Positions 15,280 to 57,376 of a stretch of DNA of 64,000 nucleotides are shown here, piece by piece. The position numbers and the translations under genes are program-made. The notes under the pieces were generated by a model, which was not told where the DNA came from, did not search any database, and saw only the letters and a list, made by a program, of their open reading frames with translations. Location: contig CAWJCS010000004.1 in the NCBI GenBank assembly GCA_963841435.1, positions 512,001-576,000 on the forward strand. Direction: 5' to 3'. The DNA is from an uncultured delta proteobacterium. GTDB taxonomy: Bacteria; Myxococcota_A; Polyangia; Polyangiales; Polyangiaceae. Positions within the stretch are counted from its first letter, which is position 1; each line of letters begins with the position of its first letter.

Positions 15280-15280
15280 G

Positions 15281-32797: not shown

Positions 32798-33967
32798 TAA
32801 ACGTCCATCTTCATGTTCTCGCCCTCGACGGCGTGTACGTCCGCGATACGGAGAGCGGCGCGCTCGTGTTCGAGGAGCTCGGCACGCCCAGCCACGTGGA
32901 GGTACTAGACGTCGCACGCCGCACCGCCGAGCGCATCGACAGGCTGCTCGGAAAGAGCGGCCGGAGCCTCGAGCGGGAAGGGGACGAGCCCGTGCCCGAG
33001 CTCCTCTCCGACGAGCCGAGCCTGGCCTCGTGCTATGCGGCCGCTGCCCAGGGCATCAGCGTGAGCGGCGAGCGAGCGGGAAAGCCCCAGCTCAGGCTCG
33101 TCCTCGGCACTGGCGCCACTGCCGAAGGAGCCGAGCTCAACCCGGACGAGCCCGTGGCCGAGCACCTCGGCGTCAACATCCACGCCAAGCAGTCGGTTGA
33201 ACGGGCGTGATCGCCGGCAGCTCGAGCGTTTGTGCCGTTACATCACGCGGCCTCCTGTTGCTCAGGAAAGACTCGAGCGGCTTGCCGACGGCCAGCTCGA
33301 GCTCCGACTCAAGCATGCGTGGAAGGACGGCACGCGCGCCGTCGTGCTCGAGCCCGACGACTTGCTGGTCCGGCTCGTCGCCGCGGTGCCCCCGCCACGC
33401 TGGCATTTACTTCGCTACTTCGGCGTCCTCTCGAGCCACTCACGGCTCCGCCGAGAAGTTGTTCCGCACCCGCCCGCTGATCCGAGTGCTACCGCGCCTC
33501 CGCCTGCTCCGGGCGATCAGCTCGAGCTCGACCTCGACGCTGACGCTGACGAGCCTGCTCCGAGAAAAAGATGGGCCTGGCTGCTCAGACATGTGTTCAA
33601 GGCAGATTTGGATATTTGTCCGCGCTGCGGTGGACCGATGCGCTGGCTCGAGGCGGCGGCTACCCGAGAGTCTGCTCGTGACCTGCTCGCTCGGCTCGGG
33701 CTCGGGCCCAGGCCGCCGCCGGCTCCACCCCGCACGCCGCTCGCGCAGCTCACGCTGCCGTTCGCGAGGTGAGCCGGCTTGCGCTGGTCGCTGCGCCAGG
33801 CGAGCGTCCGCGCGCGTTCTGGGTTCGGGGAGCTCTGGCACCTCAGAGCCTCCTTCCGCCTCGTCCACGACAGCACGTCCACCCCATAGGCGTGCGTTCT
33901 TACGGCCTCGCCGGCCTCGCCGTGGGCCCCGCCCGGGACCTTTTGCCAGATCGTTTCGCCTAGGCGC
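32798..33967 (+). mobile_element. 5'-truncated copy of the IS91/ISCR-like element
   Basis: Matches 39258..40426 except for a substitution plus 1-bp insertion near 33198, which shifts the frame. Confidence 0.92.
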
Positions 33968-34078
33968 CGCGGGCGTCGGGCGACCGCGAGTGCTTCGACT
34001 TCGACGCGGACGTGTCGATCGTCAGGGGAGAGTCCGTCCAGCTCATCGGGTCATTCAGGTCTTCGCCTGGTGAGGTTG

Positions 34079-35248
34079 TCATCGGCACGCGGCTCCGTGG
34101 TCATCGGCCCACGGGGTGCACGTCGCCGCGCATGCGCCGCACGGCGCCCGCGAGGGGGTACCTGATACGCAGGCGACGACCGTGTTGCCGTCGCAGCTTG
34201 CGAAGCTGCCCAGCCCGTTGCAGCTGTCTTCCGCGGGTGAGACACACCGGAAACCTCCGGCGGCGGAACTGAACCCGCACACGGAACCACGAGCCGGGCA
34301 GTCGTGGCTTCTTGGCGCCCCCGCGTCGCAAAAGAAAGCGCTCCCGCGCAGACAGCTTCCTTCGGAAGTGAGCCCGGAGCAGCCAGTGTCGGAGATGGCA
34401 GCGTGACTGAGAACGTGCTCGATGAACGGGGGCCAGTCCGCCAATCGATCGACGCGGGTGTAATGGTCTTGGCCGACGCAGCTCGAGTTCCCGTGGTCCA
34501 GCACGCCGATGATATTGACTTCCCCGCTATCCCCTCGCGCTAGGAGGGGTCCTCCGGAATCGCCCTCGCACGCTCCGCTGCGGCCAAAGCCGTCGACGAC
34601 GACGTGATCTTCGTCGATGCTCGCGATCTGTTCCACCACGAAGCGCAGTTGTCCGAGCTCACCCTGTTCCGTCAGTCCATACCCGGAAAGCTCGGCGGGC
34701 GAGCCCACCCAGGCCTCGGCCAGTGGCTCGCGTCTCGGCGAAAGAGGGCGCAACTCCGCTGCGGCAAGTCCGTCGGCTTCCAACAGGACGACGTCGAGAC
34801 CTTGGTGAAGCCAGGTACGCTCGATTGACGCGCTCTGGAAGGGCGGATTGCCGACTAGAATTAGGCCCGTCGGTGACCCTGAGTCAGTCGTTTCATCGAC
34901 CGCGCCGTCGAGGTCGCGATCAAAACAGTGCGCGGCCGACAGCACGAAACCCGGAGCAACGAGCACTCCGCTGCACAGGGTACGGGCCCCACCGCCCGCG
35001 GGGCTCGGCGAGGTGGGTAGGACCGCCACGATGGCGAGGGTCTGGCTGGCGTCGAGCGGCACGAGGCGCGCTGCTGGCGCGCCTCCGACGATGCCGGAGA
35101 CCCAGCACTCGGGGCGTTCGAGATCGTCGGATGAGCCGTTCGTGCACCCGGCAACGATGGATAGACCCGTCACGAACCAGATCAACGCCGCCGTCCGGTG
35201 CAGCGGGCAGGTGCGCGGCTTGCGTGGCCAGCTCTGACGGTGCCTCAC
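34079..35248 (-). CDS. Trypsin-like (S1) serine protease lipoprotein with Cys-rich tail
   Basis: Lipobox VAGC, IVGG, CSGVL, SAAHC, GDSGGP and YTRVD. GTGA overlap with the upstream gene. Confidence 0.88.
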   Translation of the reverse strand: MRHRQSWPRKPRTCPLHRTAALIWFVTGLSIVAGCTNGSSDDLERPECWVSGIVGGAPAARLVPLDASQTLAIVAVLPTSPSPAGGGARTLCSGVLVAPGFVLSAAHCFDRDLDGAVDETTDSGSPTGLILVGNPPFQSASIERTWLHQGLDVVLLEADGLAAAELRPLSPRREPLAEAWVGSPAELSGYGLTEQGELGQLRFVVEQIASIDEDHVVVDGFGRSGACEGDSGGPLLARGDSGEVNIIGVLDHGNSSCVGQDHYTRVDRLADWPPFIEHVLSHAAISDTGCSGLTSEGSCLRGSAFFCDAGAPRSHDCPARGSVCGFSSAAGGFRCVSPAEDSCNGLGSFASCDGNTVVACVSGTPSRAPCGACAATCTPWADDHGAACR

Positions 35249-35829
35249 CAAGGGGGGTTTGGTGCCGAGGCACCGTCCAGGTTCAGGTAGGCGTCGCGAC
35301 ACGTGGCCACTGGGTCCTCTGGCGGCACGGCAACCGCTTGGTAGCCGTCAACGGCGACGCTGTTGACCAACACGCTGCCATCCTTCGCCTGGATCGTGAG
35401 CGTAGCTCGATCGCCTGGGCCCAGCGCTGCGGCAAGCTCGGGCTCGTAGGTGAGCCACACCTTGAACGCCACCACGGGTCCGCTGGCGCCCATGGATACG
35501 CCGGCGTACACATCCGCGTGAAGCGCCCCATTAGCGTCGGCGACGTGCTCTTCGCAAACGTCGTTGTCGGTGCAGCCGGGTCGCGACCAGTCTTCCTCCA
35601 ATGGTAGCACCATGTCGTGGGTGCACACGTTGTCCTTCAAGCAGGCCCGGATGGTGAGGCTCGAGCTTTCAGCCGGAAGCTCCCCAACCCAGATGGTGTC
35701 GCACGGAAGCGGATTCGTGTGAGCCTTCTCGGCCGCCGAACTCCCACAGCTCGGCACAAGCAGCGACCCTGCTGTTGCGAGCACGAGGCCCCGCAATCCC
35801 TGCACCACGAACGTGACTTGGTCCTTCAA
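35245..35829 (-). CDS. Hypothetical lipoprotein, tandem paralog B
   Basis: Signal peptide ending VPSC; colinear with and highly similar to 35889..36476. Confidence 0.75.
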   Translation of the reverse strand: MKDQVTFVVQGLRGLVLATAGSLLVPSCGSSAAEKAHTNPLPCDTIWVGELPAESSSLTIRACLKDNVCTHDMVLPLEEDWSRPGCTDNDVCEEHVADANGALHADVYAGVSMGASGPVVAFKVWLTYEPELAAALGPGDRATLTIQAKDGSVLVNSVAVDGYQAVAVPPEDPVATCRDAYLNLDGASAPNPPW

Positions 35830-35888
35830 AGTTCCTCTCAGGGCAAGGCGTGTCGTAGCCGGGCTGCGGGGTCAGTTCGGACCGTGCC

Positions 35889-36476
35889 TCACCAAGGCGG
35901 GTCTGGTTGCGAGGAACCGTCCAGATTGAGGTAGGCGTTACGGCACATCGCCACCGGGTCCTCTGGTGGCACCGCGACCGTTTGATAGTCGTCCACGGCC
36001 GCGCTGTCAACCATCATGCTGCCGTCCTTCGCCTGGATCGTGAGTGTCGGTCGATCGCCGGGGGCGAACGTTGCCGCAAGCTCGGGATCGTAGTGGAGCC
36101 GCACGGCGAGCGCCACCACGGGGTCGCTGACACCCATGGATACGCCGGAATAGACATCCGCTTGAAGCGCCCCACTATCGTCCGCGACGTGGCGTTCGCA
36201 AACGTTGTCGTCGACGCAGCCGGGTCGCGACCAGTCATCCTCCAAGGGTAGCACCATGTCGTGGGTGCACACGTCGTCCTTCAAGCAGGCCCGGATGATG
36301 AGGCTTGCGCTTTGGGCTGGAAGCTCGCCAAACCAGGCGGTGTCGCACTGGAGCTCTGGATTCGAGTCACCCTTCTCGGGTGTCGAACCCCCGCAGCCCG
36401 CCGCAAGCAACGACCCTGCTGTCGCGAGCACGAGACGACGCAACACCTGCAACCCGAAAGTAACCTGGTCCTTCAT
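35889..36476 (-). CDS. Hypothetical lipoprotein, tandem paralog A
   Basis: Lipobox AAGC; ATG at 36476; paralog of the adjacent gene. Confidence 0.75.
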   Translation of the reverse strand: MKDQVTFGLQVLRRLVLATAGSLLAAGCGGSTPEKGDSNPELQCDTAWFGELPAQSASLIIRACLKDDVCTHDMVLPLEDDWSRPGCVDDNVCERHVADDSGALQADVYSGVSMGVSDPVVALAVRLHYDPELAATFAPGDRPTLTIQAKDGSMMVDSAAVDDYQTVAVPPEDPVAMCRNAYLNLDGSSQPDPPW

Positions 36477-36492
36477 GATTCGTCCCTTTCCC

Positions 36493-37737
36493 CTACCAGC
36501 AGCGAACATAGGCGTTTCCATTGCTCGTGCCGTGGTAACAGCCGCCCGGAAGCCACGATTCAATCCACGGTATCTTGTCACTCAGACGCGTGTAGTACTC
36601 CTCGTTCCCCGGCTCTGGGCAGATGTCCCCCGGCGGCTCGTGCCCCGACACCGTACCGAAAATCACGCCCGTAAATCGGGCGCCTTGCCAATCAAGCCGT
36701 AGTTCGTTGCTGGCCCTCCCGAGTCACCGGAGCATTCCCTGCCCCACCCTTGCGTGACATTGGCGTGCCAATGCGAGCTACCATTCCAGCCAACCGTTTC
36801 CCAGTGATTGCCGGAGCGTCCAATGCCCACGCCCGTCCCCGAGTCCTGATTTGCGCCGTAGCCTTCCATCCAGAACTGTTGACCGGTAACTGTCATCTGA
36901 TTCAGAATCCGCGACCACGCCGCCGAAAAGTCTGCGGGCCAAGCCCACGGAGCATCGGGGCTAATCAGCGCAAGGTCGTGATCCCTGTCGCCGCTTCCTA
37001 GATAACCGGGATAGCCGAAATAGAGCGCGTTGTCTCCGGGCGCACCACAATCCGAGACGCAAGGCCAAGGCTCCGTGATGCCATCATGTGCCCACCATGG
37101 ATAGGTGCCGAAATCGACATCCGCATGCACGCTTCCGAACAAACCAGGAACGCAGTGGCGCGCGGTCAGCATCCACTGTGGACCGATCAGAACACCGCTG
37201 CACGTTCCAATGCCGGAAATCCGGAGGCGAACCGCCCACGTGTCGAAGACAAACCCATCGGCGATCTTGTCGATGTCGCCGTTCAGGTCTTCCGTGTCCG
37301 GAGGCTCGTCACCCGCCGCGCGCGGAGAGGGCTCTGCAGATGGTAGGGACTCCAGGTAGTCGTTCCTGGCGGCCATGAACGACCTGGCGTCGTCGCACGT
37401 GGCGACGCTGCGGATGCCCCTAGCCTCTATGGCGCTTGCCGCTGCGTGGTCTTCGCCGGTGGTTTTCCCGGCCAGGATGTCGTTCATCCTCGGGATGTTG
37501 TAGAGTTCGCGTTCGACGACGTGTCGGCCACTATCCGGCTCGACACGTTCCCATTCCCCGCAAACAGTGAAGCCGTCGGCGTCTAGGTAGGGGTATCCCC
37601 GATCGACGAGTTGCCACTGATCCGCCAGGACGGCTTCCCCCCCCCCCCCCGGCGATGCCGTGGTTGTCACCGCAAGCGGTGGCCGTGAGGGCCAATATCG
37701 CTAGCCCATGTCCCCGTAACGCCCTTTTTGCTCCCAT
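36493..37737 (-). pseudogene. Trypsin-like serine protease lipoprotein with two frameshifts (G14 tract and ~36695)
   Basis: RBS plus MGAKR...ATAC signal in one frame; CSGVL, TARHC, DLAL and GDSGGP in a second; GVIFG...YTRLSDKIPWIES...VRCW* in a third. Could be intact in the organism. Confidence 0.75.
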
Positions 37738-37840
37738 AGCCCTCTCCTCTCTAATCGTTGGAACGCCAAGTTCCGAGTGGGTAGTTGCCACGCACCCTCT
37801 GCTTCGTCAAGTGAAGATCTGATGGAATTGAACAAGAAGC

Positions 37841-38120
37841 TGATCTTCCCCCGGTTTCGTGGACACCCCAGAAGGCGCGAGAATGCGCCGGGAGTGGACC
37901 ATGGAAAACAAGAAGCAACGAAGGAAGCGGCGCTCGTTCACGGCCGAGTTCAGGGCCGAAGCGGTTCGCCTGTGCAAGGTCGGCGACCGCAGCGTCACGC
38001 AGGTGGCCAAGGACCTCGACCTCACCGAGAACTCGCTGCGTGAGTGGGTCAAGCGCGCCGACATCGACGCCGGCAGTGGACCGCCAGGCGCGCTCACCAC
38101 AGCCGAGCGCGAGGAACTCG
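37841..38120 (+). mobile_element. IS3-family remnant: left end plus truncated orfA
   Basis: TGATCTTCCCCCGGTTTCGTGGACAC resembles IS3-group left ends. orfA from 37901 (RRSFTAEFRAEAVRL...QVAKDLDL..NSLREWV) breaks after EREEL. Confidence 0.82.
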
Positions 38121-38227
38121 AGCTTGAGCTCGAGCTGATCGCCAGGCGCCGGCGGCGGGACATGCGCGCTCGGATCAGCGGGCGGGTGTGGCACGACTTC
38201 TCGGCGGAGCCGCGAGTGGCTCGAGAG
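38117..38227 (-). mobile_element. Short inverted, diverged fragment of a related IS91/ISCR transposase
   Basis: Encodes LSSHSRLRREVVPHPPADPSAHVPPPAPGDQLEL, versus ...ADPSATAPPPAPGDQLEL in the full copy. Confidence 0.85.
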
Positions 38228-38686
38228 CAGGCCAGAGTCGAGCGTCTCGACAGCCGTTTGGCCGGCGGGCGTGAGGTCAGATATCGCGATGGAGGCGCCG
38301 GTCATTCCTCTGGGACGCGCGTCGCCGCGCGCCTCGAGCGGCCTACCCGGGAGCTCGGGCGGGCAGCCCTCGAACGCTCCTCTATGTGGCCTTGCTCCAG
38401 CTTTGCTGCCCACGCCCCGGCCTGCTCGGCGCGTGCTCGTGTGCTCAGGCGGGCGCGCCGCGCGCAGCGTTGACGATGGGGTCGTCGTGGCCCGCCTTGC
38501 GCGCACTGCGCGCGCTGCCTGCGCGGGCCTTGCCCCTCCCAAACTTGTGCTCGGCCGCGGGCCTGCGCGCAAGCGGGAGGGGCCCGCGACCGGCGGCCGC
38601 GTGGCGAGCCAGTGGCCGCCGGGCATCGAGCAAGCGCGATCTGGTGAGAGAGCGCATCGGCACGCGGCTGGCTCGAGCGCTCGAGC

Positions 38687-40231
38687 GTGGGCGATCCCGC
38701 GCACAGTCGGCAAACAGAGCACGGCACTACCCGTCGGGACGGCTACGCGCGAAGGCGACCGGAAGACGGCGTGCTCTACCAGACGGTGGCCGAGCGCTGG
38801 CCGGCGTTTCGCGAGCGGATGGAGGAGTCGGGCGGGCTGCCGAAGTTCGTGGTGAGGGAGTTCGAGGAGTTCTTGAAGTGCGGCATCATCGAGGAGGGTT
38901 GTCTCCACCTCGTGTGCCGTAGCTGCGGCTACTCCGAGGTCGTGGCGCTCTCCTGCAAGAAGCGAGGGTTCTGCCCCAGTTGCCTGGGGCGGCGGATGGC
39001 GGATACGGCGGTCCACTTGGAAGAGCGTGTGCTGCCGTGCGTGCGCATTCGGCATTGGATTTGTTCCTTGCCCTGGGGCCTCAGAGCCTTGCTCGGCTAC
39101 GACCGCGAGCTCTGCGCGAAGGTCGTGAGCGCGTTCGTCGGTGAGCTCAGCCGCTCGCTCAAGAAGAGAGCGAAAGGAGAGTTCGGCCTTGCGAGCGTCG
39201 AGGATGCGCACACCGGCGCCGTCTGCACCGTGCAGAGGACGGACGGGGCTTTGCGACTAAACGTCCATCTTCATGTTCTCGCCCTCGACGGCGTGTACGT
39301 CCGCGATACGGAGAGCGGCGCGCTCGTGTTCGAGGAGCTCGGCACGCCCAGCCACGTGGAGGTACTAGACGTCGCACGCCGCACCGCCGAGCGCATCGAC
39401 AGGCTGCTCGGAAAGAGCGGCCGGAGCCTCGAGCGGGAAGGGGACGAGCCCGTGCCCGAGCTCCTCTCCGACGAGCCGAGCCTGGCCTCGTGCTATGCGG
39501 CCGCTGCCCAGGGCATCAGCGTGAGCGGCGAGCGAGCGGGAAAGCCCCAGCTCAGGCTCGTCCTCGGCACTGGCGCCACTGCCGAAGGAGCCGAGCTCAA
39601 CCCGGACGAGCCCGTGGCCGAGCACCTCGGCGTCAACATCCACGCCAAGCAGTCGGTCGACGGGCGTGATCGCCGGCAGCTCGAGCGTTTGTGCCGTTAC
39701 ATCACGCGGCCTCCTGTTGCTCAGGAAAGACTCGAGCGGCTTGCCGACGGCCAGCTCGAGCTCCGACTCAAGCATGCGTGGAAGGACGGCACGCGCGCCG
39801 TCGTGCTCGAGCCCGACGACTTGCTGGTCCGGCTCGTCGCCGCGGTGCCCCCGCCACGCTGGCATTTACTTCGCTACTTCGGCGTCCTCTCGAGCCACTC
39901 ACGGCTCCGCCGAGAAGTTGTTCCGCACCCGCCCGCTGATCCGAGTGCTACCGCGCCTCCGCCTGCTCCGGGCGATCAGCTCGAGCTCGACCTCGACGCT
40001 GACGCTGACGAGCCTGCTCCGAGAAAAAGATGGGCCTGGCTGCTCAGACATGTGTTCAAGGCAGATTTGGATATTTGTCCGCGCTGCGGTGGACCGATGC
40101 GCTGGCTCGAGGCGGCGGCTACCCGAGAGTCTGCTCGTGACCTGCTCGCTCGGCTCGGGCTCGGGCCCAGGCCGCCGCCGGCTCCACCCCGCACGCCGCT
40201 CGCGCAGCTCACGCTGCCGTTCGCGAGGTGA
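38687..40231 (+). CDS. IS91/ISCR-family rolling-circle (HUH) transposase
   Basis: Zn-binding CRSC...SCKKRGFCPSC, HUH motif NVHLHVL, single-Tyr LCRYITRPP, LRYFGVL and C-terminal CPRCGG. Confidence 0.92.
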   Translation: MGDPAHSRQTEHGTTRRDGYARRRPEDGVLYQTVAERWPAFRERMEESGGLPKFVVREFEEFLKCGIIEEGCLHLVCRSCGYSEVVALSCKKRGFCPSCLGRRMADTAVHLEERVLPCVRIRHWICSLPWGLRALLGYDRELCAKVVSAFVGELSRSLKKRAKGEFGLASVEDAHTGAVCTVQRTDGALRLNVHLHVLALDGVYVRDTESGALVFEELGTPSHVEVLDVARRTAERIDRLLGKSGRSLEREGDEPVPELLSDEPSLASCYAAAAQGISVSGERAGKPQLRLVLGTGATAEGAELNPDEPVAEHLGVNIHAKQSVDGRDRRQLERLCRYITRPPVAQERLERLADGQLELRLKHAWKDGTRAVVLEPDDLLVRLVAAVPPPRWHLLRYFGVLSSHSRLRREVVPHPPADPSATAPPPAPGDQLELDLDADADEPAPRKRWAWLLRHVFKADLDICPRCGGPMRWLEAAATRESARDLLARLGLGPRPPPAPPRTPLAQLTLPFAR

Positions 40232-40426
40232 GCCGGCTTGCGCTGGTCGCTGCGCCAGGCGAGCGTCCGCGCGCGTTCTGGGTTCGGGGAGCTCTGGCAC
40301 CTCAGAGCCTCCTTCCGCCTCGTCCACGACAGCACGTCCACCCCATAGGCGTGCGTTCTTACGGCCTCGCCGGCCTCGCCGTGGGCCCCGCCCGGGACCT
40401 TTTGCCAGATCGTTTCGCCTAGGCGC
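38687..40426 (+). mobile_element. Full-length IS91/ISCR-like element; right (putative oriIS) end at 40426, left end undefined
   Basis: The 195 nt after the stop, ending ATCGTTTCGCCTAGGCGC, are shared by four copies. No terminal inverted repeats or target duplication seen. Confidence 0.85.
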
Positions 40427-40983
40427 TCAAGACGGCGAAGACCGACTACACCGAGCACGCCGACAAGCACGACGTCTCCAACATCGTGCGTGGCATCATG
40501 AAGGAGCAGCACCGCGCGATGTTCGCCGCTCTGCGCGCGGGCTCGCTCGACGCGGCGCTCGAACGAGCGATTGGTCCCCTGTCCGAAGTTCCCGCGAAAG
40601 GCCCTGCCAGCCGCCGTCCGGAAAGCGTGCGTCCCGCGCATCCGCGCGAGCAGAATAGCCCCCGCCGCGGCCCACCACAGAACCCCGCCCTGCAGGGCGT
40701 GTCGCCCTCCGTGTCGCCTCCTACCTCTGACGACTTCGACGCAGGCACACTGCGCGATCTCCCGCCCGCGTCGCTGTCGCAGCCAGCGCCGCGCTCGCGC
40801 AAGACCAACCAGCCGCCGCGCCGCAGTCGCCCCCCGTCGCCGCATCGCCCGGCGGCCCAATTCGCCGGGGCGCCGGAAGCCCGTGCCCGCTCCATCTTCG
40901 GTGACGAAGCGATCAGCGAGCAGACCTTGGACGAGGTCATCCTGAGCTATCTCGCCGAGGATCTCGACGACTCGGGCGAGTGA
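40427..40983 (+). pseudogene. 5'-truncated hypothetical gene of a type recalled from myxobacteria
   Basis: Frame is open from the element end: LKTAKTDY...MKEQHRAMF...TLDEVILSYLAEDL. The N-terminus is missing. Confidence 0.6.
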
Positions 40984-44561: not shown

Positions 44562-45367
44562 GCGAGCGGGCATCGCGCGCTTTTTTCGCCCGCGTGAGCA
44601 CGACAAGTGGCGCGCTCCGCACCCGCTCCCGCGCCTTGCACCTCGGCCTGGCAGAGGCAGGGACGCAGCGACCCGTCTCGCTCGGACGGGCAGAGTGAGT
44701 CAGATGACAGGAGCATTGCACCCTGCCAGGTGCTGAGTGGAGGCTTCGTCGATGTCACGCCTAAGCTCTTATGATCTCTGGATCCTCACAGCGCTCGTCG
44801 CGGTCGGCGCTTGCGGGCGCTCGACGCGCGAGCCACCGAGCGACGGAGGGCGGTCGGGAGTTGGCGGTGGCGGAACGAGCGGGGGTACGATCGGTGGAGT
44901 TGGTGCAGTAGGCGCTGCCGGCGTTTCTGCAGGAGGCTCGCAGGGAGGCACGGGGACAGGCGGTACGGCGACAGGCGGCGCGGCCGCGCGCGGAGGAGCG
45001 AGCGCCGGCACATCGGCGAGCGGAGGCGTGAGCCCGACTGGCGGCTCAGGAGCGGTGAGCGCCGGTGGTCAGGGCGAGGACAGTGGCGAAGGGGGCGCGC
45101 CGGCGGGCTCCCCGGGCCGCGGCGGCGACTCGGGCCGTGGCGGACAGAGCGCGGGGCGCGGGGGAACGGCTGGCACGAGCGGGGGGACCGGAGGCGACGC
45201 CGCTGGAGCGGCGGGAGCCACGAGCTGGCGGGACTTGCGGTGCGTTGCGGCCGAACTGCAGAGATCATGCCTTAAGCAGGAACCCAATACCGTGGTCGTC
45301 AACTGCAACGTAACCGCTGCACGGACCCCATCTGTCGAGCACGCGCTGGTGCTGGCAGAAGTCGTGC

Positions 45368-45664
45368 ATGCGGAAGCGGTACACGGCTGAGCAGCGGGAG
45401 CGGTTGGTCGCTGAGGTAGCGGCGGGCGAGGCGGTGCCGGTGGTGGCGGCGCGGATGGGTGTGGGGGCCTCGGCGGCATACCTGTGGGTCAAGGAGGCAC
45501 GAGAGGGGAGCAAGCCGACGTTCGCGAAGCTGGTGCGGGCGTTAACGCCGGCGGCGTCATCGTCGATGGTGCTCGAAGTGGGACGAGCTCGAGTGCGCGT
45601 CGAAGCTGGCTTCGACGCCGAGCTGCTCAGGCGGGTCGTGTCGGCGCTGAGCGACGCATCGTGA
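45368..45664 (+). CDS. tnpA: IS66 TnpA (HTH accessory protein)
   Basis: RYTAEQR...VAARMGV..AYLW HTH; RVEAGFDAELLRRV. Confidence 0.85.
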   Translation: MRKRYTAEQRERLVAEVAAGEAVPVVAARMGVGASAAYLWVKEAREGSKPTFAKLVRALTPAASSSMVLEVGRARVRVEAGFDAELLRRVVSALSDAS

Positions 45665-46002
45665 TCGGGCAGGGGCTTCCGGTGTACGTGGCGCTCGAGC
45701 CGGTGGACATGCGGTTCGGATACGAGCGGCTCGGCGGGGTCGTGCGTGAGCGGATGCAGGCGGAGCCGAGGTCGAAGGCGCTGTTCGTTTTCGTCGGCAA
45801 ACGCGGGCACACGATGAAAGTGCTGACCTGGGACGGCTCGGGCACGATCGTGGTTCACAAGCGGCTCGACGCGGGGAAGTTCGAGCTGCCGAAGGCGACG
45901 CGAGTCGGCGATCAGCACGTGATCGTGAGCGACGCGATCTTCGAGGTGATCTACAAGGGCGTCGCAACGGCACCGAGGAAAGTTCGCCGGCGCGTGCACT
46001 GA
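45661..46002 (+). CDS. tnpB: IS66 TnpB accessory protein
   Basis: PVDMRFGYERL, LFVF, KVLTWDGSG and KRLDAGKF. GTG start overlaps the tnpA stop. Confidence 0.9.
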   Translation: MIGQGLPVYVALEPVDMRFGYERLGGVVRERMQAEPRSKALFVFVGKRGHTMKVLTWDGSGTIVVHKRLDAGKFELPKATRVGDQHVIVSDAIFEVIYKGVATAPRKVRRRVH

Positions 46003-46070
46003 GTCGGAGCTCGCAATTTTCTTACGCGCCCGCTTGAGAAATTCGATCGCGCTCATGTATAGAGGAGAGC

Positions 46071-47750
46071 GTGTCGAGCACGCGATCGGACGAAGCGAAA
46101 CCGCAGCTATCGCCGGACGAGCTCACCATGCTGCTCTCGACGCTCCAGGCCGAGGTCGTGGGGCTCAAGACGCGTTTCTCCGAGGCCGTGACGCGCAACG
46201 AGGCGCTCGAGGAAACGATCGTCAACCTGACGCACGAAAACGAGCTACTCAAGCGCCGCATCTACGGCAACAAAACGGAGCGGACCGGGACGAGCGAGCT
46301 TCAGCTGACGCTCGGCAACCTGCTCGACTCGGAAAAACAGCTTCAGAAGGAGCTCGACGCCGCCGTGGCCAAGGCGCGTGGCGATGACGACGTTCCTGCC
46401 GCCCCGCCCGCGGGCGCCTCGCGACCGAAGCCCAAGGGCCGGCGAGATTTGTTGGCGAGCGACCTGCCGCGCGTCCTGTTCGAGATCCGCGACGAGGAGC
46501 TCGAGAAGACGGGCAAGCTCATCGGCTGGGACTACGCGCCGCAGCTGATGTACCGCCGAGGCGGCTGGTCGGTCCTGGTCAAGCGCACGGCCAAGTACGA
46601 GATCCCCGGCAAGGACGGCCCGACGGTGCTCGGCGTCGAGACGCCGAAGACGTTGTTCCGGCGCGGTCTCCTGCATTCGTCGGTCGTGGCACACGTCTTG
46701 GCGCAGAAGTTCTCGCTCGGCGTGCCGCACTACCGACTCGAGCAGCACCTCGCCGGCCAGGGTGTCGACCTCGACCGCGGTCTCATGTGCCGCTACGTGG
46801 AAGAAGCGGGTAGCACGTGCGGAGCCACCATCGTCCACGCCATGTGGCAGGACGCGCTCGAGAGCGGCTCGGTGATCTCGACCGATGCAACGTCGGCGCT
46901 GATCCAGCCTGAAAAGAGCCAAAATGGCCAGCGGCAGGCCTGCAAGAAGGGCCACTTCTTCACCGCCGTCGTGGACACCGACCACGTGCTGTTCGCGTAC
47001 GCCGAGAAGCACACGCAAGACTTCGTGAAGAAGCTCTTCGGCGGCTTCACGGGATTTCTCCAGTCCGACGCCAGCAACGTCTACGACATCCTGGACCGGG
47101 GACCCCCCAGCGAAGATGACGAGACCGTCACCCTCGTCGGATGTTGGGCTCACTGCAGGCGCTATTTCTTCGAGGCCGCGATCTGCAAACACCAGATCGG
47201 CATCCAAGGCCTCTTGCGCATTCGCGCCATCTACGCTGCTGACGACGCGTTCCGGAAGCTGCCGCCCGCCAAACGCAAGGCGCTGCGCGATACGCACCTG
47301 CGCCCCCTCATGCTGAGCTTCTTCGAGTGGGTGAAGGCCACGCGCCTCACCACGCCCGGCCGCAGTCTCGCAACCAAAGCGCTCGGCTACGCGTTCAACC
47401 AGGAGAACGAGCTCTTGCGCGTGCTCGACGACGGCCGTCTGCCCCTCGACAACACGCGCTCCGAACGCTCGCTGCGAAAAATCGTCGTGGGTCGCAAAAA
47501 TTGGATGTTCTACGGCAGCGACACCCACGCCGAGAGCGCCGCCGCCATCTTCAGCCTGATCGCCTCCTGCCGGCTTCACCGGCTCGACGCCGAGCAGTAC
47601 CTCGACGAGATCCTCCGCGTCCTGCCCTACTGGCCCCCGACTCGCTACCTCGAGCTCGCTCCGAAGTTCTGGCCCGCCACCCGTGCCAAGCTTCGCGCCG
47701 AGGAACTCGACGCACCGCTGTGCCCGTTCACCATCCCGCCGGCGGCCTGA
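46071..47750 (+). CDS. tnpC: IS66 DDE transposase TnpC
   Basis: YGNKTER, GCWAHCRRYF, LDNTRSERSLR and GRKNWMF. Confidence 0.93.
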   Translation: MSSTRSDEAKPQLSPDELTMLLSTLQAEVVGLKTRFSEAVTRNEALEETIVNLTHENELLKRRIYGNKTERTGTSELQLTLGNLLDSEKQLQKELDAAVAKARGDDDVPAAPPAGASRPKPKGRRDLLASDLPRVLFEIRDEELEKTGKLIGWDYAPQLMYRRGGWSVLVKRTAKYEIPGKDGPTVLGVETPKTLFRRGLLHSSVVAHVLAQKFSLGVPHYRLEQHLAGQGVDLDRGLMCRYVEEAGSTCGATIVHAMWQDALESGSVISTDATSALIQPEKSQNGQRQACKKGHFFTAVVDTDHVLFAYAEKHTQDFVKKLFGGFTGFLQSDASNVYDILDRGPPSEDDETVTLVGCWAHCRRYFFEAAICKHQIGIQGLLRIRAIYAADDAFRKLPPAKRKALRDTHLRPLMLSFFEWVKATRLTTPGRSLATKALGYAFNQENELLRVLDDGRLPLDNTRSERSLRKIVVGRKNWMFYGSDTHAESAAAIFSLIASCRLHRLDAEQYLDEILRVLPYWPPTRYLELAPKFWPATRAKLRAEELDAPLCPFTIPPAA

Positions 47751-47942
47751 GCTCGGCGCGAGCGCGGCATCGCGACCCCCGGCCGAGCTGCCCTTTCAAG
47801 ATGGGGTCGGTGTAGCGGTTACACTGCAACGGAGCTGACGTGGTGGAGGCGATGGAAGCCGGCTGCACTGCCTGCACCTACGGGCAGGCGTACTGCGATT
47901 ATGGCGGCGGCCCCGTCCCACCCGATTGAGGCAGGTGGGTCG

Positions 47943-48413
47943 GGTCTAGAATGGATGCCATTTGGATTCGCTGGCGGTTTGTTCGATGCGCGGTCGGGAA
48001 CGATAAGGTTTGGGGCGCGCGACTATGATCCCGTGATCGGTCGATGGACCGCGAAGGATCCCTTGTTCTTTGCTTCGCGGACGACCAACCACTACGCCTA
48101 CGTGGGGAACGACCCAGTCAATGATCGCGATCCAACGGGTCTGCAGTTTCTGACCGGGTGCTCGCCGGTGAAGCCGGAGCAGGAGCTGAAAGAGAAGAAG
48201 GATGAGGAGGTCGATGAATGTAGCAAGATCCCGCGAGGCGGAAAAGGGAAACTGCTCGGCCCGAACGAGTCCTCTGACTCCGAACCGGACTACGCGGCGC
48301 AAGCCGCCAAGTGCCGGAAGAAGGAGCGGGAGTACAGCAAGGAGCAGAAGGACTACACTGAAGAAGAGTCGAACATTTTTCACAGGATCTTCTGTTGGTT
48401 TTTCGGCTGCTAG
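47943..48413 (+). CDS. Orphan RHS core tip with C-terminal extension (putative toxin domain)
   Basis: PFGFAGGLFD, FGARDYDP..GRWTAKDP and YAYVGNDPVNDRDPTGL, then ~90 aa. No upstream YD repeats. Confidence 0.85.
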   Translation, partial: GLEWMPFGFAGGLFDARSGTIRFGARDYDPVIGRWTAKDPLFFASRTTNHYAYVGNDPVNDRDPTGLQFLTGCSPVKPEQELKEKKDEEVDECSKIPRGGKGKLLGPNESSDSEPDYAAQAAKCRKKEREYSKEQKDYTEEESNIFHRIFCWFFGC

Positions 48414-48421
48414 GTCGCAGT

Positions 48422-49579: not shown

Positions 49580-49773
49580 TGGGTTAGCGTCCGAGATGGA
49601 TTTGCCGTCCGCCGCGTCTCACCCGAGCGTCGAACCGTCGCGCCATCGCCGAACCCCGACCCGAGGTCAGTCGGACCGATCACTCCATCCGCGAAAGTAC
49701 CAGCCAAATCCAAAGCCGACGGCGAGCACGACGACGGTCACGACGTCGATTGCGAGGCTCGGGATCACGGAAC

Positions 49774-50490
49774 CCTCCTGTTGCTCAGGAAAGACTCGAG
49801 CGGCTTGCCGACGGCCAGCTCGAGCTCCGACTCAAGCATGCGTGGAAGGACGGCACGCGCGCCGTCGTGCTCGAGCCCGACGACTTGCTGGTCCGGCTCG
49901 TCGCCGCGGTGCCCCCGCCACGCTGGCATTTACTTCGCTACTTCGGCGTCCTCTCGAGCCACTCACGGCTCCGCCGAGAAGTTGTTCCGCACCCGCCCGC
50001 TGATCCGAGTGCTACCGCGCCTCCGCCTGCTCCGGGCGATCAGCTCGAGCTCGACCTCGACGCTGACGCTGACGAGCCTGCTCCGAGAAAAAGATGGGCC
50101 TGGCTGCTCAGACATGTGTTCAAGGCAGATTTGGATATTTGTCCGCGCTGCGGTGGACCGATGCGCTGGCTCGAGGCGGCGGCTACCCGAGAGTCTGCTC
50201 GTGACCTGCTCGCTCGGCTCGGGCTCGGGCCCAGGCCGCCGCCGGCTCCACCCCGCACGCCGCTCGCGCAGCTCACGCTGCCGTTCGCGAGGTGAGCCGG
50301 CTTGCGCTGGTCGCTGCGCCAGGCGAGCGTCCGCGCGCGTTCTGGGTTCGGGGAGCTCTGGCACCTCAGAGCCTCCTTCCGCCTCGTCCACGACAGCACG
50401 TCCACCCCATAGGCGTGCGTTCTTACGGCCTCGCCGGCCTCGCCGTGGGCCCCGCCCGGGACCTTTTGCCAGATCGTTTCGCCTAGGCGC
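49774..50490 (+). mobile_element. 5'-truncated copy of the IS91/ISCR-like element
   Basis: Matches 39710..40426. Confidence 0.93.
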
Positions 50491-50736
50491 ACCTCACCGC
50501 CCTGGGCCCCGCCTCCTCTAACGACCGCTTCGCCCGCCCAACGGCCCCGCCGTTTTCCCAGTTCGATTTTCCTTCGCGCCCACCCGTGAAAACGCCACGC
50601 CGGCGCCGCCAACGCCGAGCGTCTGGACTGCTTATGCCCAAACCTTGACAGCCGGCCCCCCGCGGGGTAGCCGCACCGGGTGAGCGGCGCCTCAGCAATG
50701 GGCGCCTCAGCAATGGGCGCGGGAAGGAGCAGCGCG

Positions 50737-52996: not shown

Positions 52997-53027
52997 GACT
53001 CAGGTCAAAAAGAGGAGATACGAAGAC

Positions 53028-53600
53028 ATGAGATCCAAGATCCTGACTGGCTCCGTAGCAGTGGCATTGTGTGCCTACGCCTGTGGCTCGGACGACGAGC
53101 CCGACCATGCCGGTTCAGGAGGATCGGGTGGTCGCGGCGGCACAGGGCAGGGTGGCGCCTCCTCAGGCCAAGCGGGAGCAGGAGGCGTTTCCGGCCGGAG
53201 CGGCTCCGGCGGCCTCGCCGGCAGCTCCGGCGGCTCCGGTGGCGCAGGCGATTCCTCGATCGCGGGAATGGCAGGCGCGCCCGTGGCGGGCGATGCTGGG
53301 GCGGGAGGTGAGCGCTGCTGGGTGACCATCGCTCGGCCCATCGAGGCGGATGCCTGGTGCGTGGACTACTCGAGCGAGCTTCCTGTGACGGTGTGCTTAC
53401 CTCCTGGTACGCCCTGCAACGACTATTCGGGCTGCGCTCGTCGCCAGAGCGACGGTGCCCCCTTCTTCGTCACGAGTCCTTCCTGCTTCGTACGCGGGAC
53501 CGAAGGCTGGTACAATTGCACCCGGGAAGACAGCGAGCGGCCCCTCCCGTACTGCCCCGAGAACGCTGCGGGGGCTGGCGGCGAGGGCGGCGGTAGCTGA
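53028..53600 (+). CDS. Gly-linker, Cys-rich lipoprotein
   Basis: AGGAG upstream, lipobox AYAC, Gly linker and 8-Cys domain. Confidence 0.75.
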   Translation: MRSKILTGSVAVALCAYACGSDDEPDHAGSGGSGGRGGTGQGGASSGQAGAGGVSGRSGSGGLAGSSGGSGGAGDSSIAGMAGAPVAGDAGAGGERCWVTIARPIEADAWCVDYSSELPVTVCLPPGTPCNDYSGCARRQSDGAPFFVTSPSCFVRGTEGWYNCTREDSERPLPYCPENAAGAGGEGGGS

Positions 53601-53612
53601 AGAACGCGTCGC

Positions 53613-55310
53613 GTGCGTCCCGCGTCACGCGTGCGAACCCCCCAACCTCCGCGACACACTGTTTGGTTGCGGCTGTGGCACCGCCTCCGGTCGGCTCTCT
53701 TGCCTCGTGCGTCGCGCGTCACAATAGCGCTAAGTCTAGTCATCGCCGTTGCGGCGATTCCGCGACTTGCGGCGCTTTCTGCCGACCTTCCGCATATCCA
53801 CCACCCGGACGAGGCCAACAACTTGAACCGCGTCCAGAAGGTGTTGCGTACTGAGGACTGGAACCCTCACTTCTTTCGCTACCCCGCTCTTTCAATCTAC
53901 GCCGTGTCGGCCGTTCGCCGAATTCTCGGCTCGTTTGGCATACTGAATGGCCGGGTAGCGCAGGCGGACCTAAACAGTGTCGCCCTTGGCGTCGCGACGG
54001 CTCCTTCTACAGGAGTCGTCGTGGTTGCGCGGGGCGTGACGGCGCTATTGGGGATCGGGATGGCAGTGTGCGTATTTCTTCTTGGTCGCCAATTGACTGG
54101 TAGTCTAGCAGTTGCCGTGATCGCGGGTTCCCTTGTTGCGATATCCCCGACGGCAATCAGGTACGCACGGATCTTCTCGCCTGATACGTTTGCGGCGTTC
54201 TTTACATACCTTGCGGTCTTGGCTGCCCTCCCTCTTACAGAACGCAAGACAACGCTACGCTACGCTCTCGCGGGTGCGCTCGCGGGACTTGCAGCGGCTG
54301 GCAAGTACAACGCGGCCCTGGTCGTGATTGCGCCAGTTTCCGCCCATATTCTCTATTCTGACATGCGAGAGCTGAGATGTCTTCGGAGCCTCAAAGGCAT
54401 GGCGATACTCGGCGCAGCCGCAACGCTCGCATTTCTCGCACTGAATCCATTTATTCCGGTTGAATGGACCGCAGCTCTCGGCGACATCAAGGCCGAGCAG
54501 CGCCACTACACCGGTGGGCAAGCAGGTTCCGAGGGTGACACATTACTCTGGTACACGCGGTATCTCTGGAGCGTTGAAGGTGGTACCATTGTACTTGCGC
54601 TCTACGGCGTCATTCATGCTGTGCAGAGACACGTTAGGAACCTGCTCATCCCGGTGATCTTTACCTTTGTCTACTGCGCCGGAATTTCGATGTTTGCGGT
54701 CCGGAATGGACGTGCCCTTCTGCCCGTGCTTGGGCTAGTCGAGGTGCTCGCAGCGGTCGCATTGGTCGCCATGGCCGAGACAGCGCGGCGCTGGGTTCGG
54801 GCTGTCGCGGGTGTCGCGGCGGTTTGTCCCCTCATGATTCGCTCATATCCGGCATTGGAGCAGCTGACGCTCGCCCAGAAGATTGCATCCGATAATGCGG
54901 GGCTGTGGATTGAGCGGCACGTCCCTAGCAAGACGGTCATCGCCGTCGAGGCTGGAGGGCCAATACTTGACAGGCGACGCTATCGCATTGTCGCCGAGGA
55001 TTTTCTTCACGAAATGCCCATGCTGGGCTACAAGCGTGCAGGCGTTCTGATATTTGCCGTGTCGGCTGGCAATAGGTACCTCCGGGGGCCGAACCGCTAC
55101 CGGCGAAGGACGGCACTCTATCGCGAGATCGCGAGTCGGAATCGCCTAATCGGGCGGTTTCGATCGCCGCGACTGGTCGGACCTTATGCGGATCTGGTGG
55201 GGGTGATAAGCAACCCTCTACTTCAGCGCGCCTGGATTGGTTACGATGCGGTCGGTGCTGCTTCCTGTGCTCTGTACCGGGCGCCGTGGGCGGCCCCTGT
55301 GGCCCAATAG
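53613..55310 (+). CDS. GT-C fold membrane glycosyltransferase (PMT/ArnT, GT39/GT83-like)
   Basis: HPDE, WNPHFFRYP, many TM helices, AGLAAAGKYN. Visibly lower GC than its neighbours. Confidence 0.82.
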   Translation: MRPASRVRTPQPPRHTVWLRLWHRLRSALLPRASRVTIALSLVIAVAAIPRLAALSADLPHIHHPDEANNLNRVQKVLRTEDWNPHFFRYPALSIYAVSAVRRILGSFGILNGRVAQADLNSVALGVATAPSTGVVVVARGVTALLGIGMAVCVFLLGRQLTGSLAVAVIAGSLVAISPTAIRYARIFSPDTFAAFFTYLAVLAALPLTERKTTLRYALAGALAGLAAAGKYNAALVVIAPVSAHILYSDMRELRCLRSLKGMAILGAAATLAFLALNPFIPVEWTAALGDIKAEQRHYTGGQAGSEGDTLLWYTRYLWSVEGGTIVLALYGVIHAVQRHVRNLLIPVIFTFVYCAGISMFAVRNGRALLPVLGLVEVLAAVALVAMAETARRWVRAVAGVAAVCPLMIRSYPALEQLTLAQKIASDNAGLWIERHVPSKTVIAVEAGGPILDRRRYRIVAEDFLHEMPMLGYKRAGVLIFAVSAGNRYLRGPNRYRRRTALYREIASRNRLIGRFRSPRLVGPYADLVGVISNPLLQRAWIGYDAVGAASCALYRAPWAAPVAQ

Positions 55311-55479
55311 TCGCTGTGATGGTGCCGGAAAATCTGCTGCCAATCGTCCCGGAAAAATCTGCGGTCTCCCGGAAGGGAGGCCAGACATGATGGAATCGGC
55401 ATGATCCACAGCTGGATCTGCGCCAAGCTCTTGCTGCAGCTGGTCAGCGCGCGCATTGCAAGTAGGGCGCCCTCCACCT

Positions 55480-55615
55480 TACCGAGACTTGCTGCCGAAC
55501 GACCAAAGTGCCGCTCGAACCGCTGGATGCACCGCAGGTAAGTCACCCGCGTGTTGAGCGGTGTACCCGAGAGCTCGAGCTCCTCGGCAACCCTCTTTCT
55601 CAGTTGTTCCTTCAC
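55480..55615 (-). pseudogene. N-terminal SAM-like fragment of a tyrosine integrase
   Basis: RBS AGGAGG + GTG; EQLRKRVAEELELSG..NTRVTYLRCIQRFERHFGRSAASLG, after which similarity stops. Confidence 0.6.
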
Positions 55616-55759
55616 GGCGATCCTCCTGTCAACGGTGCTCGACGCGAGCACCGAGCCGTCCAGGATCTGGGCGTAACTCAAGCCGGAAACTTCGAGGGCT
55701 CCAACATCCCGACAATGCGCTCGAGCGAGCACCCAAAGGCGTCCGACATCAAGCTTTGG

Positions 55760-56249
55760 GACCGCTCCCGCCCGAAGCTCATGGACGCACGCCGTCGGCG
55801 ACCACAGCCGGCGTACGACCCCAAGATGGTCACCGCCTGGAATGGGCTTGCGATCGGAGCCCTGGCCCTGGGGTATCGAGTCTCCGGTGAGCAGCGCATC
55901 CGTGACGCTGCCGAGCGGGTCGCAGAGGCCATCTGGCGCTTGAACCATCACGCGGGCGGCGATCTCGCTCGAAGCTCGAACGGCAAGCAGGCCGGCAGCT
56001 CTGCCGTGCTCGACGACTTCGCCTTCCTCAGCAACGGGCTCGTCGAGCTGTTCGAGGCGACCGGCAACCCGGTGTACCTGGAGCACGCCACTACCCTGGC
56101 CACGCAGGCGATGGACCGATTCGCGAATCCAAGCGGCGGATGGTTCCTGACCTCCGGCACGGAGCAGGAGCCTTTGGGGCGGCGGATCGAGGTCTCCGAC
56201 GGCGTGGAGCCCTCCGGGAACGCTGCGATGCTCATGACGCTCGCGAAAC
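55760..56249 (+). pseudogene. Internal fragment of a YyaL/SSP411 thioredoxin-domain protein
   Basis: RPQPAYDPKMVTAWNGLAI, LDDFAFL..GLVELFEATG and DGVEPSGNA. Cut by the element at 56250. Confidence 0.75.
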
Positions 56250-56886
56250 CACGCGCGCCGTCGTGCTCGAGCCCGACGACTTGCTGGTCCGGCTCGTCGC
56301 CGCGGTGCCCCCGCCACGCTGGCATTTACTTCGCTACTTCGGCGTCCTCTCGAGCCACTCACGGCTCCGCCGAGAAGTTGTTCCGCACCCGCCCGCTGAT
56401 CCGAGTGCTACCGCGCCTCCGCCTGCTCCGGGCGATCAGCTCGAGCTCGACCTCGACGCTGACGCTGACGAGCCTGCTCCGAGAAAAAGATGGGCCTGGC
56501 TGCTCAGACATGTGTTCAAGGCAGATTTGGATATTTGTCCGCGCTGCGGTGGACCGATGCGCTGGCTCGAGGCGGCGGCTACCCGAGAGTCTGCTCGTGA
56601 CCTGCTCGCTCGGCTCGGGCTCGGGCCCAGGCCGCCGCCGGCTCCACCCCGCACGCCGCTCGCGCAGCTCACGCTGCCGTTCGCGAGGTGAGCCGGCTTG
56701 CGCTGGTCGCTGCGCCAGGCGAGCGTCCGCGCGCGTTCTGGGTTCGGGGAGCTCTGGCACCTCAGAGCCTCCTTCCGCCTCGTCCACGACAGCACGTCCA
56801 CCCCATAGGCGTGCGTTCTTACGGCCTCGCCGGCCTCGCCGTGGGCCCCGCCCGGGACCTTTTGCCAGATCGTTTCGCCTAGGCGC
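56250..56886 (+). mobile_element. 5'-truncated copy of the IS91/ISCR-like element
   Basis: Matches 39790..40426. Confidence 0.93.
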
Positions 56887-57376
56887 TCGACGCAAGACCG
56901 ACCAGTTCGTGATCGATAGGCTTCGAAAGACCCCGTTCGAAGTGGGTGCAGATCGGATCGCGCGTACGGCGCACGCGGCTCTGGGACTCTTGGCGAGTCT
57001 CCGTAACCAGTGCTGCGACCCCATCCCGCTCGCCTGGAGCCCTGGACGAGCTGCGGGTCGCCACTGTATCGAGGTCTACCCGGCGGCGACGCTTCTGGGC
57101 AGGGGTCTGCTGGCCAAGGGCTACAAGGGGAAGCGAACCGAACTTGCCAGCCGGGAAAAACGTCTCACGATACTCAAGGCGCTCTCCGCGGAAGTGCGTT
57201 TGGCGGGCGCCGTTGAACGGGACGCAGCCGCCGTAGACCACGTGCTCGATGCGGTGATCTGCGTGATTGCTGCTGCCGACTTCGTCAAGGGAACCGTAAT
57301 CGTCCCAGAAGACCCAACTGTTGCGAGGCGGGAGGGCTGGATCTGGTTCTCCGACCGGCGCTCCAACACGCCTTGA
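56887..57376 (+). pseudogene. 3' half of a DUF429-family (predicted RNase H-like nuclease) gene
   Basis: RRKTD, VGADRIA, IEVYPAATL, LDAVIC and EGWIW. The N-terminus is missing. Confidence 0.7.

Follow-up and report, generated by a model that had tools for sequence, protein, structure and literature searches.

Introduction

The movement of many resistance genes is attributed to ISCR elements. These and the insertion sequences (IS) of the IS91 family are the described systems with which the locus reported here can best be compared. It has been reported that IS91-family elements start at oriIS, end at terIS and leave no target duplication, and that their termination fails in 1-14% of events, in which case adjacent DNA is carried along (PMC13181058). 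According to what is reported among PMC13181058, PMC6218425 and PMC13393415, only one single-stranded circle form inserts. For ISCR1, the DNA on the oriIS side is variable (PMC6218425), and resistance plasmids are known to carry arrays in which intact and partial ISCR copies surround cargo (PMC7722449). A Myxococcota metagenome-assembled genome (MAG) is reported to contain ISCR28, connected with sul4 (PMC12772301), and a 2026 paper states that the mechanism of ISCR transposition is not experimentally proven (PMC13393415). This work concerns a 64,000-nt stretch of DNA (the window), which is C4:512001-576000 of the Polyangiaceae-like genome G000 (7.78 Mb, 6 contigs, 68.5-68.9% G+C; contigs are cited by C numbers) and in which copies of one repeat separate unrelated gene blocks. 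The sequence of the repeat places it in the IS91 superfamily as an ISCR-like member not described before, a rolling-circle element with a single-tyrosine HUH transposase. It clearly adds one more example to the gene-shuffling elements of a kind already known and is not a new kind of system.

An earlier note on this DNA had described four same-strand copies with one common end base, three of them 5'-truncated inside the transposase gene with 1170, 717 and 637 bp retained, and had seen no target duplications. It had assigned the element to the IS91/ISCR type with a fixed oriIS-side end, and had proposed that rolling-circle capture stacked blocks of proteases, lipoproteins, an RHS tip and a glycosyltransferase into an integron-like array. 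The description was borne out in all of these points, whereas the proposed origin of the array was so only in part, as discussed below. A limited search of open-access text found no account of arrays like this one in Polyangiaceae with cargo other than resistance genes.

Copies of the element

Self-blastn and the sequences at the junctions delimit one full and three partial copies in the window.

32798..33967, + strand: copy 1, 5'-truncated, 1170 bp corresponding to 39258-40426 at 99.83% identity, with 1 mismatch and a 1-bp indel that is a frameshift
38233..40426, + strand: copy 2, the full element, 2,194 bp
38687..40231, + strand: transposase gene of copy 2 (P0001), 514 aa, with Zn_Tnp_IS91 and Y2_Tnp domains
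49774..50490, + strand: copy 3, 5'-truncated, 717 bp corresponding to 39710-40426 at 100% identity
56250..56886, + strand: copy 4, 5'-truncated, 637 bp corresponding to 39790-40426 at 100% identity

The 18-nt end ATCGTTTCGCCTAGGCGC occurs four times in the window, always on the + strand and ending at 33967, 40426, 50490 and 56886, and a search of shuffled controls gave 0 matches in 100 shuffles. The truncation points of copies 1, 3 and 4 all lie inside the transposase open reading frame (ORF), 38687-40231. Two further near-identical pieces are present in the genome, a fifth 5'-truncated copy with an identical right end (C6:170190-171591) and a piece on the other strand of C5 (C5:896869-897894) that corresponds to 38233-39258. 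The C5 piece and copy 2 have the same 5' part but unlike left flanks, which puts the left end of the element at 38233 and gives the element a length of 2,194 bp. The right end is kept to the exact base in all five near-identical copies that retain one, and four of these five lack the 5' part. No target duplication or repeated flanking bases were seen in the junction sequences of any of the four copies in the window, among which copy 2 alone has both ends.

Relationship to ISCR and IS91 transposases

The product of P0001 matched the Pfam families Y2_Tnp (PF04986, E 1.1e-22), an HUH single-strand nuclease domain, and Zn_Tnp_IS91 (PF14319, E 5.4e-15), an N-terminal zinc-binding domain. Its top NCBIfam model was that of ISCR clade Ia (NF052416), at 260.4 bits against a cut-off of 925, and its score with the IS91 equivalog of the same collection was 93.6 bits, under the cut-off of 125. 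P0001 is thus a relative of ISCR clade Ia and not a member of it, and the element belongs by sequence to the wider ISCR1/ISCR2 group although it fails both curated cut-offs. In a plasmid search, the closest annotated relatives were the transposases of ISCR1 (35.4% identity over residues 15-474, E 3e-74) and ISVsa3, which is ISCR2 (36.2% over residues 20-474, E 4e-70), the alignable length being about 455 aa. Homologues 55-80% identical to P0001 come almost only from MAGs of Polyangiaceae, Polyangiales and Myxococcales, and relatives at 31-43% identity from Alteromonas and other Gammaproteobacteria. A RomY-like gene fragment in the window likewise indicates Myxococcota, and the host is thus probably a myxobacterium of the Polyangiaceae type.

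P0001 can be aligned with both ISCR transposases end to end, and in an alignment of these three with one Polyangiaceae homologue the HUH, tyrosine and CxxC residues are invariant. The HUH histidines are H194 and H196, where VHLHV of P0001 aligns with VHYHM of ISCR1 and VHFHM of ISCR2; the tyrosine of the catalytic motif RLCRYI(T/S)RP is Y338, conserved in 4/4 sequences; and the CxxC pairs are C77/C80, C96/C99 and C464/C467. The motif contains a single tyrosine in P0001, as it does in both aligned ISCR transposases. IS91 itself has two tyrosines in its catalytic motif, and the element differs from it in this respect. It also differs from the described ISCR elements in being chromosomal, in a Polyangiaceae-like myxobacterium, and in its cargo, which consists of genes for proteases and lipoproteins, a glycosyltransferase gene and an RHS tip; the arrangement of intact and partial copies flanking unrelated cargo is like that of ISCR elements on resistance plasmids (PMC7722449).

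As a separate observation, three loci of one Polyangiaceae MAG (L044, L046 and L049) contain a related transposase gene that is split at residue ~104-108 by the same insert of ~2.6 kb, with residues 1-108 at 7102-7416 and the rest from 10001. This insert may be a nested element or an intron that travels with the transposon.

The right end is a conserved boundary

The right end, on the side that corresponds to oriIS, follows the transposase gene after a non-coding tail of 195 nt.

40406..40426, + strand: right terminal motif CAGATCGTTTCGCCTAGGCGC, which also ends copies 1 (33947-33967), 3 (50470-50490) and 4 (56866-56886)

The element closes in ...CCTAGGCGC, beyond which the DNA is variable. 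The tails of 14 IS91-like loci in G000, which represent at least three subfamilies 75-85% identical in the gene, were aligned, and 13 of the 14 reach ...CCTnGGCGC and diverge right after GGCGC. The consensus CAGWTCGWWTnnCCTnGGCGC had 37 matches in the genome at up to 2 mismatches, compared with 2 in a shuffled genome, and 30 matches at up to 1 mismatch. Because the tails of several subfamilies stop at one motif that is rare in the shuffled genome, the right end is a real conserved functional boundary, and such a fixed end is as would be expected of the site at which the transposase nicks and strand displacement starts. The organization is also like that of ISCR1, in which a tail of similar length (~200 nt; 232 nt in ISCR1) leads to a fixed base with variable DNA beyond it (PMC6218425), although the terminal sequence itself differs from that of ISCR1. 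In a metagenome scan, the exact 21-nt right end had 0 matches. The degenerate motif matched 119 stretches, of which 80 were fetched; only 2 of the 81 motif instances in these, one of them in L151 (see below), had transposase homology upstream, so nearly all of them are chance matches.

The left end and a captured piece of rnpB

The left part of copy 2 is composite.

38233..38294, + strand: left terminal (terIS-like) module with the hairpin GTCGAG-CGT-CTCGAC, 6-bp stem, 4 nt from the end
38300..38417, - strand: captured rnpB (RNase P RNA gene) fragment, matching Rfam RF00010 at 57.7 bits, E 4.4e-17
38405..38686, + strand: conserved leader, adjoining the rnpB fragment on its right side; its start, (C)TGCCCAC, is an inner left boundary in addition to the outer one

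The outer left end at 38233 is common to two copies with different flanks (copy 2 and C5:896869-897894). The bottom-strand sequences at the two left boundaries of the element are ...CTCGACTCTG and ...GTGGGCAG. The left module carries the motif GCGGGCGTGAGG, and subfamily b has this motif near its own left end as well. The two ends of the element are unlike, not inverted copies of one another, and in this, in the lack of target duplication and in a subterminal palindrome beside the left-end cleavage site the element resembles IS91, IS801 and IS1294 (PMC13181058). The hairpin in particular fits the published description of terIS (PMC13181058). Compared with ISCR1 and ISCR2, the element has a recognisable left end with a subterminal hairpin.

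The inner boundary lies 172 nt inside the outer one, with the rnpB piece in between. Three leader-only remnants (C4:705443, C3:1542961 and C6:177226) start at the inner boundary, each with a different left flank; a metagenome relative (L151, 79% identical) is alignable from 38407 on, which is where its available DNA begins. Positions 38296-38400 are 97% identical to C4:576063-576167 in the native rnpB gene of this genome (C4:576007-576390, 286 bits), which starts 7 bases past the end of the window. On this sequence evidence, the element captured host DNA at least once. As copy 2 and the C5 piece share the outer end and differ in their flanks, the enlarged unit has moved at least once since the capture. 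The piece enclosed between two left ends would be the best single footprint of one-ended transposition found here, and it gives substance to the part of the earlier proposal that concerned gene capture by a rolling-circle element, while the platform itself remains speculative. Carriage of adjacent DNA upon termination failure has been described for the IS91 family (PMC13181058), and in the element it would be reflected in sequence footprints of this kind and in the copies that keep only a right end.

The genome contains a second rnpB-derived pseudo-fragment (C6:177059-177252, 80.5 bits), which includes the 3' end of the RNA and lies within another cluster of IS91-like elements. It directly abuts one of the leader remnants and resembles the ancestral arrangement of the captured piece. 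Helitrons are likewise HUH rolling-circle transposons that pick up host gene fragments, by bypass of an end signal, and the element may be likened to them, although they are eukaryotic and encode a Rep-helicase fusion.

Distribution in the genome

The copies are not evenly scattered, as a genome-wide count shows. Four of the six near-identical pieces in the 7.78-Mb genome lie inside 24 kb of the window, and 27 of 30 right ends of the family fall in five clusters that together span ~160 kb. A tblastn search of G000 gave 44 matches, and the table, read by eye, comprised 3 full-length loci, about 11 that keep the 3' end without the 5' part, 3 that keep the 5' part without the 3' end, and about a dozen cut at both ends.

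With respect to orientation, 23 of the 30 right ends are on the + strand of their contigs and 7 on the - strand, on contigs with opposite mean GC skew. The skew is weak; C2, C4 and C6 have positive values and C5 negative ones, and the + orientation of right ends prevails on all four. GC skew does not explain this excess, and replication-strand bias is no more than a candidate cause of the orientation.

An island beside rnpB

In three congeners (G003, G004 and G007), homologues of the genes at C4:~492-510 kb lie 0.2-6.4 kb from the 3' end of rnpB, and the corresponding distance in G000 is ~66-70 kb. No syntenic match to positions 1-20000 of the window was found in 5 congeners. Given this spacing and the lack of synteny, the whole window can be regarded as a lineage-specific insertion in a variable spot beside rnpB: by sequence comparison, C4:~510,000-576,007 is a lineage-specific stretch of ~66 kb, from the conserved flank to the 3' end of rnpB, that is missing from the three congeners. 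Neither an integrase nor an rnpB-derived direct repeat was found at the edges of the island. Comparison with related genomes, which the earlier note had proposed, thus yielded the missing ~66 kb; it yielded neither syntenic cargo nor an empty site in 30 relatives (queries 28000-47900 and 47900-64000). The DNA searches of these relatives and of the 5 congeners gave only IS, rnpB-like and scattered paralogous matches.

Gene blocks and junctions

The blocks between the copies are unrelated to one another and contain S1 and S8 proteases, a PMT-type glycosyltransferase, an RHS core-end tip and predicted lipoproteins, among them one of 910 aa and one whose gene is duplicated. The features that bear on the origin of the array are as follows.

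37851..38119, + strand: fragment of the accessory or OrfA gene of another IS (HTH_Tnp_1), 97% identical to C5:871623-871891
38118..38233, - strand: inverted fragment of a related IS91-like transposase gene, 116 nt, 84% identical to 39881-39996, abutting the left end of copy 2
40427..40983, + strand: 5'-truncated paralogue of a conserved RomY-like gene, 72% identical in amino acids to C2:978290-979015, starting at the first base after copy 2
45310..47822, + strand: IS66-family element between copies 2 and 3, with TnpB at 45484-46002 and the transposase at 46071-47750
50491..50579, + strand: tail remnant of the third subfamily (c), 89 nt, with its own right end CAGTTCGATTTTCCTTCGCGC, directly after copy 3
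56888..57376, + strand: DUF429 gene without ~55 N-terminal profile positions, starting at the right end of copy 4

Genes are therefore cut at right-end junctions, in that these junctions are followed by a RomY-like paralogue lacking ~47 N-terminal residues, the missing part of which was found nowhere in the genome, and by the truncated DUF429 gene. The missing part of the latter was not seen by eye in the left flank of the C5 piece, where the three-frame translations are interrupted by stops. The two flanks of copies 2, 3 and 4 are not halves of one interrupted sequence. For copy 1, the left flank gives a weak sign, a sub-threshold PEBP-like match. When this flank was joined in silico to the flank of the C5 piece, an open frame ran through the joint with no PEBP-like homology continuing, and the window part of the joint gave only a sub-threshold PBP match (E 0.096).

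Origin of the array

The observations described above could be accounted for by one-ended transposition, that is, by read-through of the left terminator, which would take flanking DNA along. In the case of the rnpB capture, an ancestor would have lain beside rnpB-derived sequence, as the C6 remnant still does, and replication would have run past the element's own terminator and halted at the next terminator-like module, thereby enclosing the rnpB piece. Partial copies with only a right end would arise during or soon after such read-through events, and the intact copy would supply the transposase that acts on these stubs. Because the stubs have no terminator, upstream DNA must move along with them, and they would carry it whenever they were acted on. 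If resident copies and the DNA next to them were the preferred landing sites of new material, a series of such events in the ~66-kb variable island beside rnpB would have stacked the blocks. This account, which rests on the arrangement of the sequences, would explain why the right ends are exact and why genes are cut where they meet them, and it would also explain the nested tails and the capture of rnpB sequence; we consider it about evenly balanced between being right and being wrong.

Several results weigh against it. The break of copy 1 (39258) and the end of the C5 piece are at the same base, and the best reading of the pair is that a rearrangement divided a single full copy, which suggests that copy 1 is not a product of transposition. 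The account does not cover copy 1, and it gives no signal for the positions of truncation; no clear common signal was found when the junction sequences at the truncation points were compared. The earlier note had ascribed the truncations to imprecise rolling-circle termination, which the copy 1/C5 pair does not bear out. The 100% identity of copies 3 and 4 over 717 and 637 bp cannot be taken as a sign of very recent events, as this would be inseparable from the age of copy 1. Among 15 right flanks, no consistent target tetranucleotide was found beside the right end (the flanks start with CGCG four times, CGAC three times, TCGA and CACC twice each, and CGCC, CTCG, TCAA and ACCT once each), and GTTC/CTTG was found on neither strand, in which the element differs from the IS91 family. 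Folding of both end regions was no better than that of shuffled sequence (z -0.3 to +1.1). No block was found elsewhere as a unit, duplicated or moved, and the lack of an empty site or syntenic cargo in the 30 relatives points the same way. In addition, the region holds the IS66-family element and other IS debris, which are a possible cause of deletions.

The co-orientation of the copies, which had been taken as a rule, was not found in the rest of the genome. For adjacent right ends within 25 kb, 12 pairs are in the same and 9 in opposite orientation genome-wide, and outside the window the numbers are 8 and 9. As orientation is mixed elsewhere, the co-orientation in the window could be due to chance (about 1 in 16). 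Nor do 5'-truncated copies prevail in other genomes: among the 78 copies that are not cut by a locus edge in 74 related loci, the sampling of which favoured N-terminal fragments, 23 are full, 17 are 5'-truncated, 24 are 3'-truncated and 14 are cut at both ends. These numbers, too, run counter to imprecise termination as the general source of truncation.

Several of these results are equally what would be expected if the region were a graveyard of decaying IS. Full copies would then have inserted independently in a dispensable, hypervariable island beside rnpB, and unrelated deletions, further insertions and rearrangements would since have removed their 5' parts together with adjacent DNA. The co-orientation would be chance and the intervening genes plain island DNA. 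The single break base of copy 1 and the C5 piece is a signature of rearrangement; the IS66-family element, the HTH_Tnp_1 fragment and the inverted IS91-like fragment are present in the window, with further elements in the other clusters; leader-only, and thus 3'-truncated, remnants exist as well; and the absence of the 66 kb from three congeners suggests that insertions there were probably tolerated. The mixed orientations outside the window and the lack of an excess of 5' truncation in other genomes also speak for decay. However, decay would have to spare the right end to the base in every near-identical copy that has one while removing the 5' part from four of the five, and within G000 the loci that lack only the 5' part (about 11) outnumber those that lack only the 3' part (3). 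Furthermore, remnants consisting only of a tail with an intact right end recur in subfamily c, three of them in all (89 nt in the window and ~310-320 nt on C5), and a 124-nt tail of subfamily b sits after a full copy of subfamily c (C5:367373-367496). At two loci of one Polyangiaceae-type MAG, a full copy is followed, 43-63 nt on, by co-oriented 5'-truncated copies. The rnpB piece between two left ends would also be hard to produce by decay alone. We regard decay as a rather unlikely origin of the array, albeit one to be taken seriously.

It is less likely still that the array works as an integron-like cassette platform, as had been suggested for this DNA. The right end would then be a recombination site for the single-tyrosine HUH transposase, segments between co-oriented right ends would be cut out as single-stranded circles and re-inserted at other right-end junctions, the right-end-only stubs would be working parts of a transposase-driven array, and the array beside rnpB would collect and reshuffle secreted predation factors. 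As in integrons, unrelated gene blocks are separated by one co-oriented repeat, five co-oriented right ends (four of subfamily a and one of subfamily c) bounding the blocks, and in three of four cases the genes that follow a right end read away from it; in ISCR1, outward promoters have been reported in the right-end region (PMC6218425). A right end is directly followed by a truncated element with its own right end at 50491-50579 and at C5:367373-367496. At one of the two MAG loci mentioned above (L029), two tandem units with a period of 1,180 bp, each made up of 63 nt and a truncated copy, come right after the right end of the full copy, although this triplet could also come from unequal crossing-over after a single insertion. 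In contrast to integrons, there is no integrase or attC site here, and what recurs is the end of a transposon. The blocks, 4-9 kb long, each hold several genes, with cut genes and other IS among them, and do not look like selected cassettes; orientations are mixed in the other clusters. Since no excised, duplicated or moved block was found, the integron-like working of the array, as claimed earlier, is not borne out, and we consider a platform of this kind improbable.

That repeat-induced misjoins or chimeric reads made the truncated copies and their junctions is very improbable, since repeat misjoins switch inside the repeat and leave full-length copies and not unique cut bases with unique flanks, the combination of an exact right end with a variable 5' cut recurs on other contigs, in other subfamilies and in independent assemblies of other genomes, and the contigs are 0.4-1.9 Mb long, whereas the short, low-depth contigs from three public soil-metagenome runs (which contained 0.18, 0.05 and 0.00 of the sampled words, in a check confined to 45400-56240, where copy 3 is the single copy, and so covering the junctions of copy 3) included none that bridged 49773/49774 or 50490/50491 and one that tracked the longer copy across 49774.

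This distant ISCR relative in a soil myxobacterium has an intact gene, both ends recognisable, near-identical full and partial copies and a captured fragment of a host RNA gene between two left ends. Together these would be natural footprints of terminator read-through without antibiotic selection, and such elements probably shape accessory islands of secreted-protein genes in Polyangiaceae. If the family is shown to be active, it would supply both ends and the transposase in one complete element, on which initiation, termination and the uptake of neighbouring DNA by ISCR-type elements could be studied.

Other features of the window

Further genes in and near the blocks are listed below.

28824-31559: trypsin-like protease, upstream of copy 1
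34079-35302 and 36663-37670: trypsin-like proteases, between copies 1 and 2
47901..48413, + strand: orphan RHS core-end and tip fragment (TIGR03696, E 4e-18)

Between 27.4 kb and the end of the window, 113 ORFs with a length of ~110 aa or more were scanned with Pfam, and none matched a resistance family. Across the window, 157 ORFs were scanned without a match to an integrase family, apart from a sub-threshold SAM-like match at 55241-56230 (E 0.027), and a tRNA scan of the window gave none.

Two adjacent paralogous genes for predicted lipoproteins (35217-35828 and 35862-36475, 82% identical) lie between the two trypsin-like protease genes that follow copy 1. The start of another predicted lipoprotein gene is present as a tandem duplication of 583 bp (43836-44415 and 44730-45310, 96%), and a 113-bp repeat (44407-44518 and 47823-47935, 88%) is found on either side of the IS66-family element, an arrangement that would result if the latter had inserted into a third module copy next to the RHS tip. 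Farther downstream, a 930-bp segment (57710-58639), which overlaps the start of a gene for a 1494-aa RTX-repeat/CBM2 protein, is 98.4% identical to C2:28846-29775 in inverted orientation. The C2 segment abuts a 99%-identical fragment of the IS66-family element of the window, a sign of recent exchange between clusters. In the left part of the window, at least 16 head-to-tail units of 15 nt (GGCTTCGCCGACCGC-like) are located at 15945-16254, within an ORF on the - strand (15948-16367), where they would encode a repeat with a pentapeptide period.

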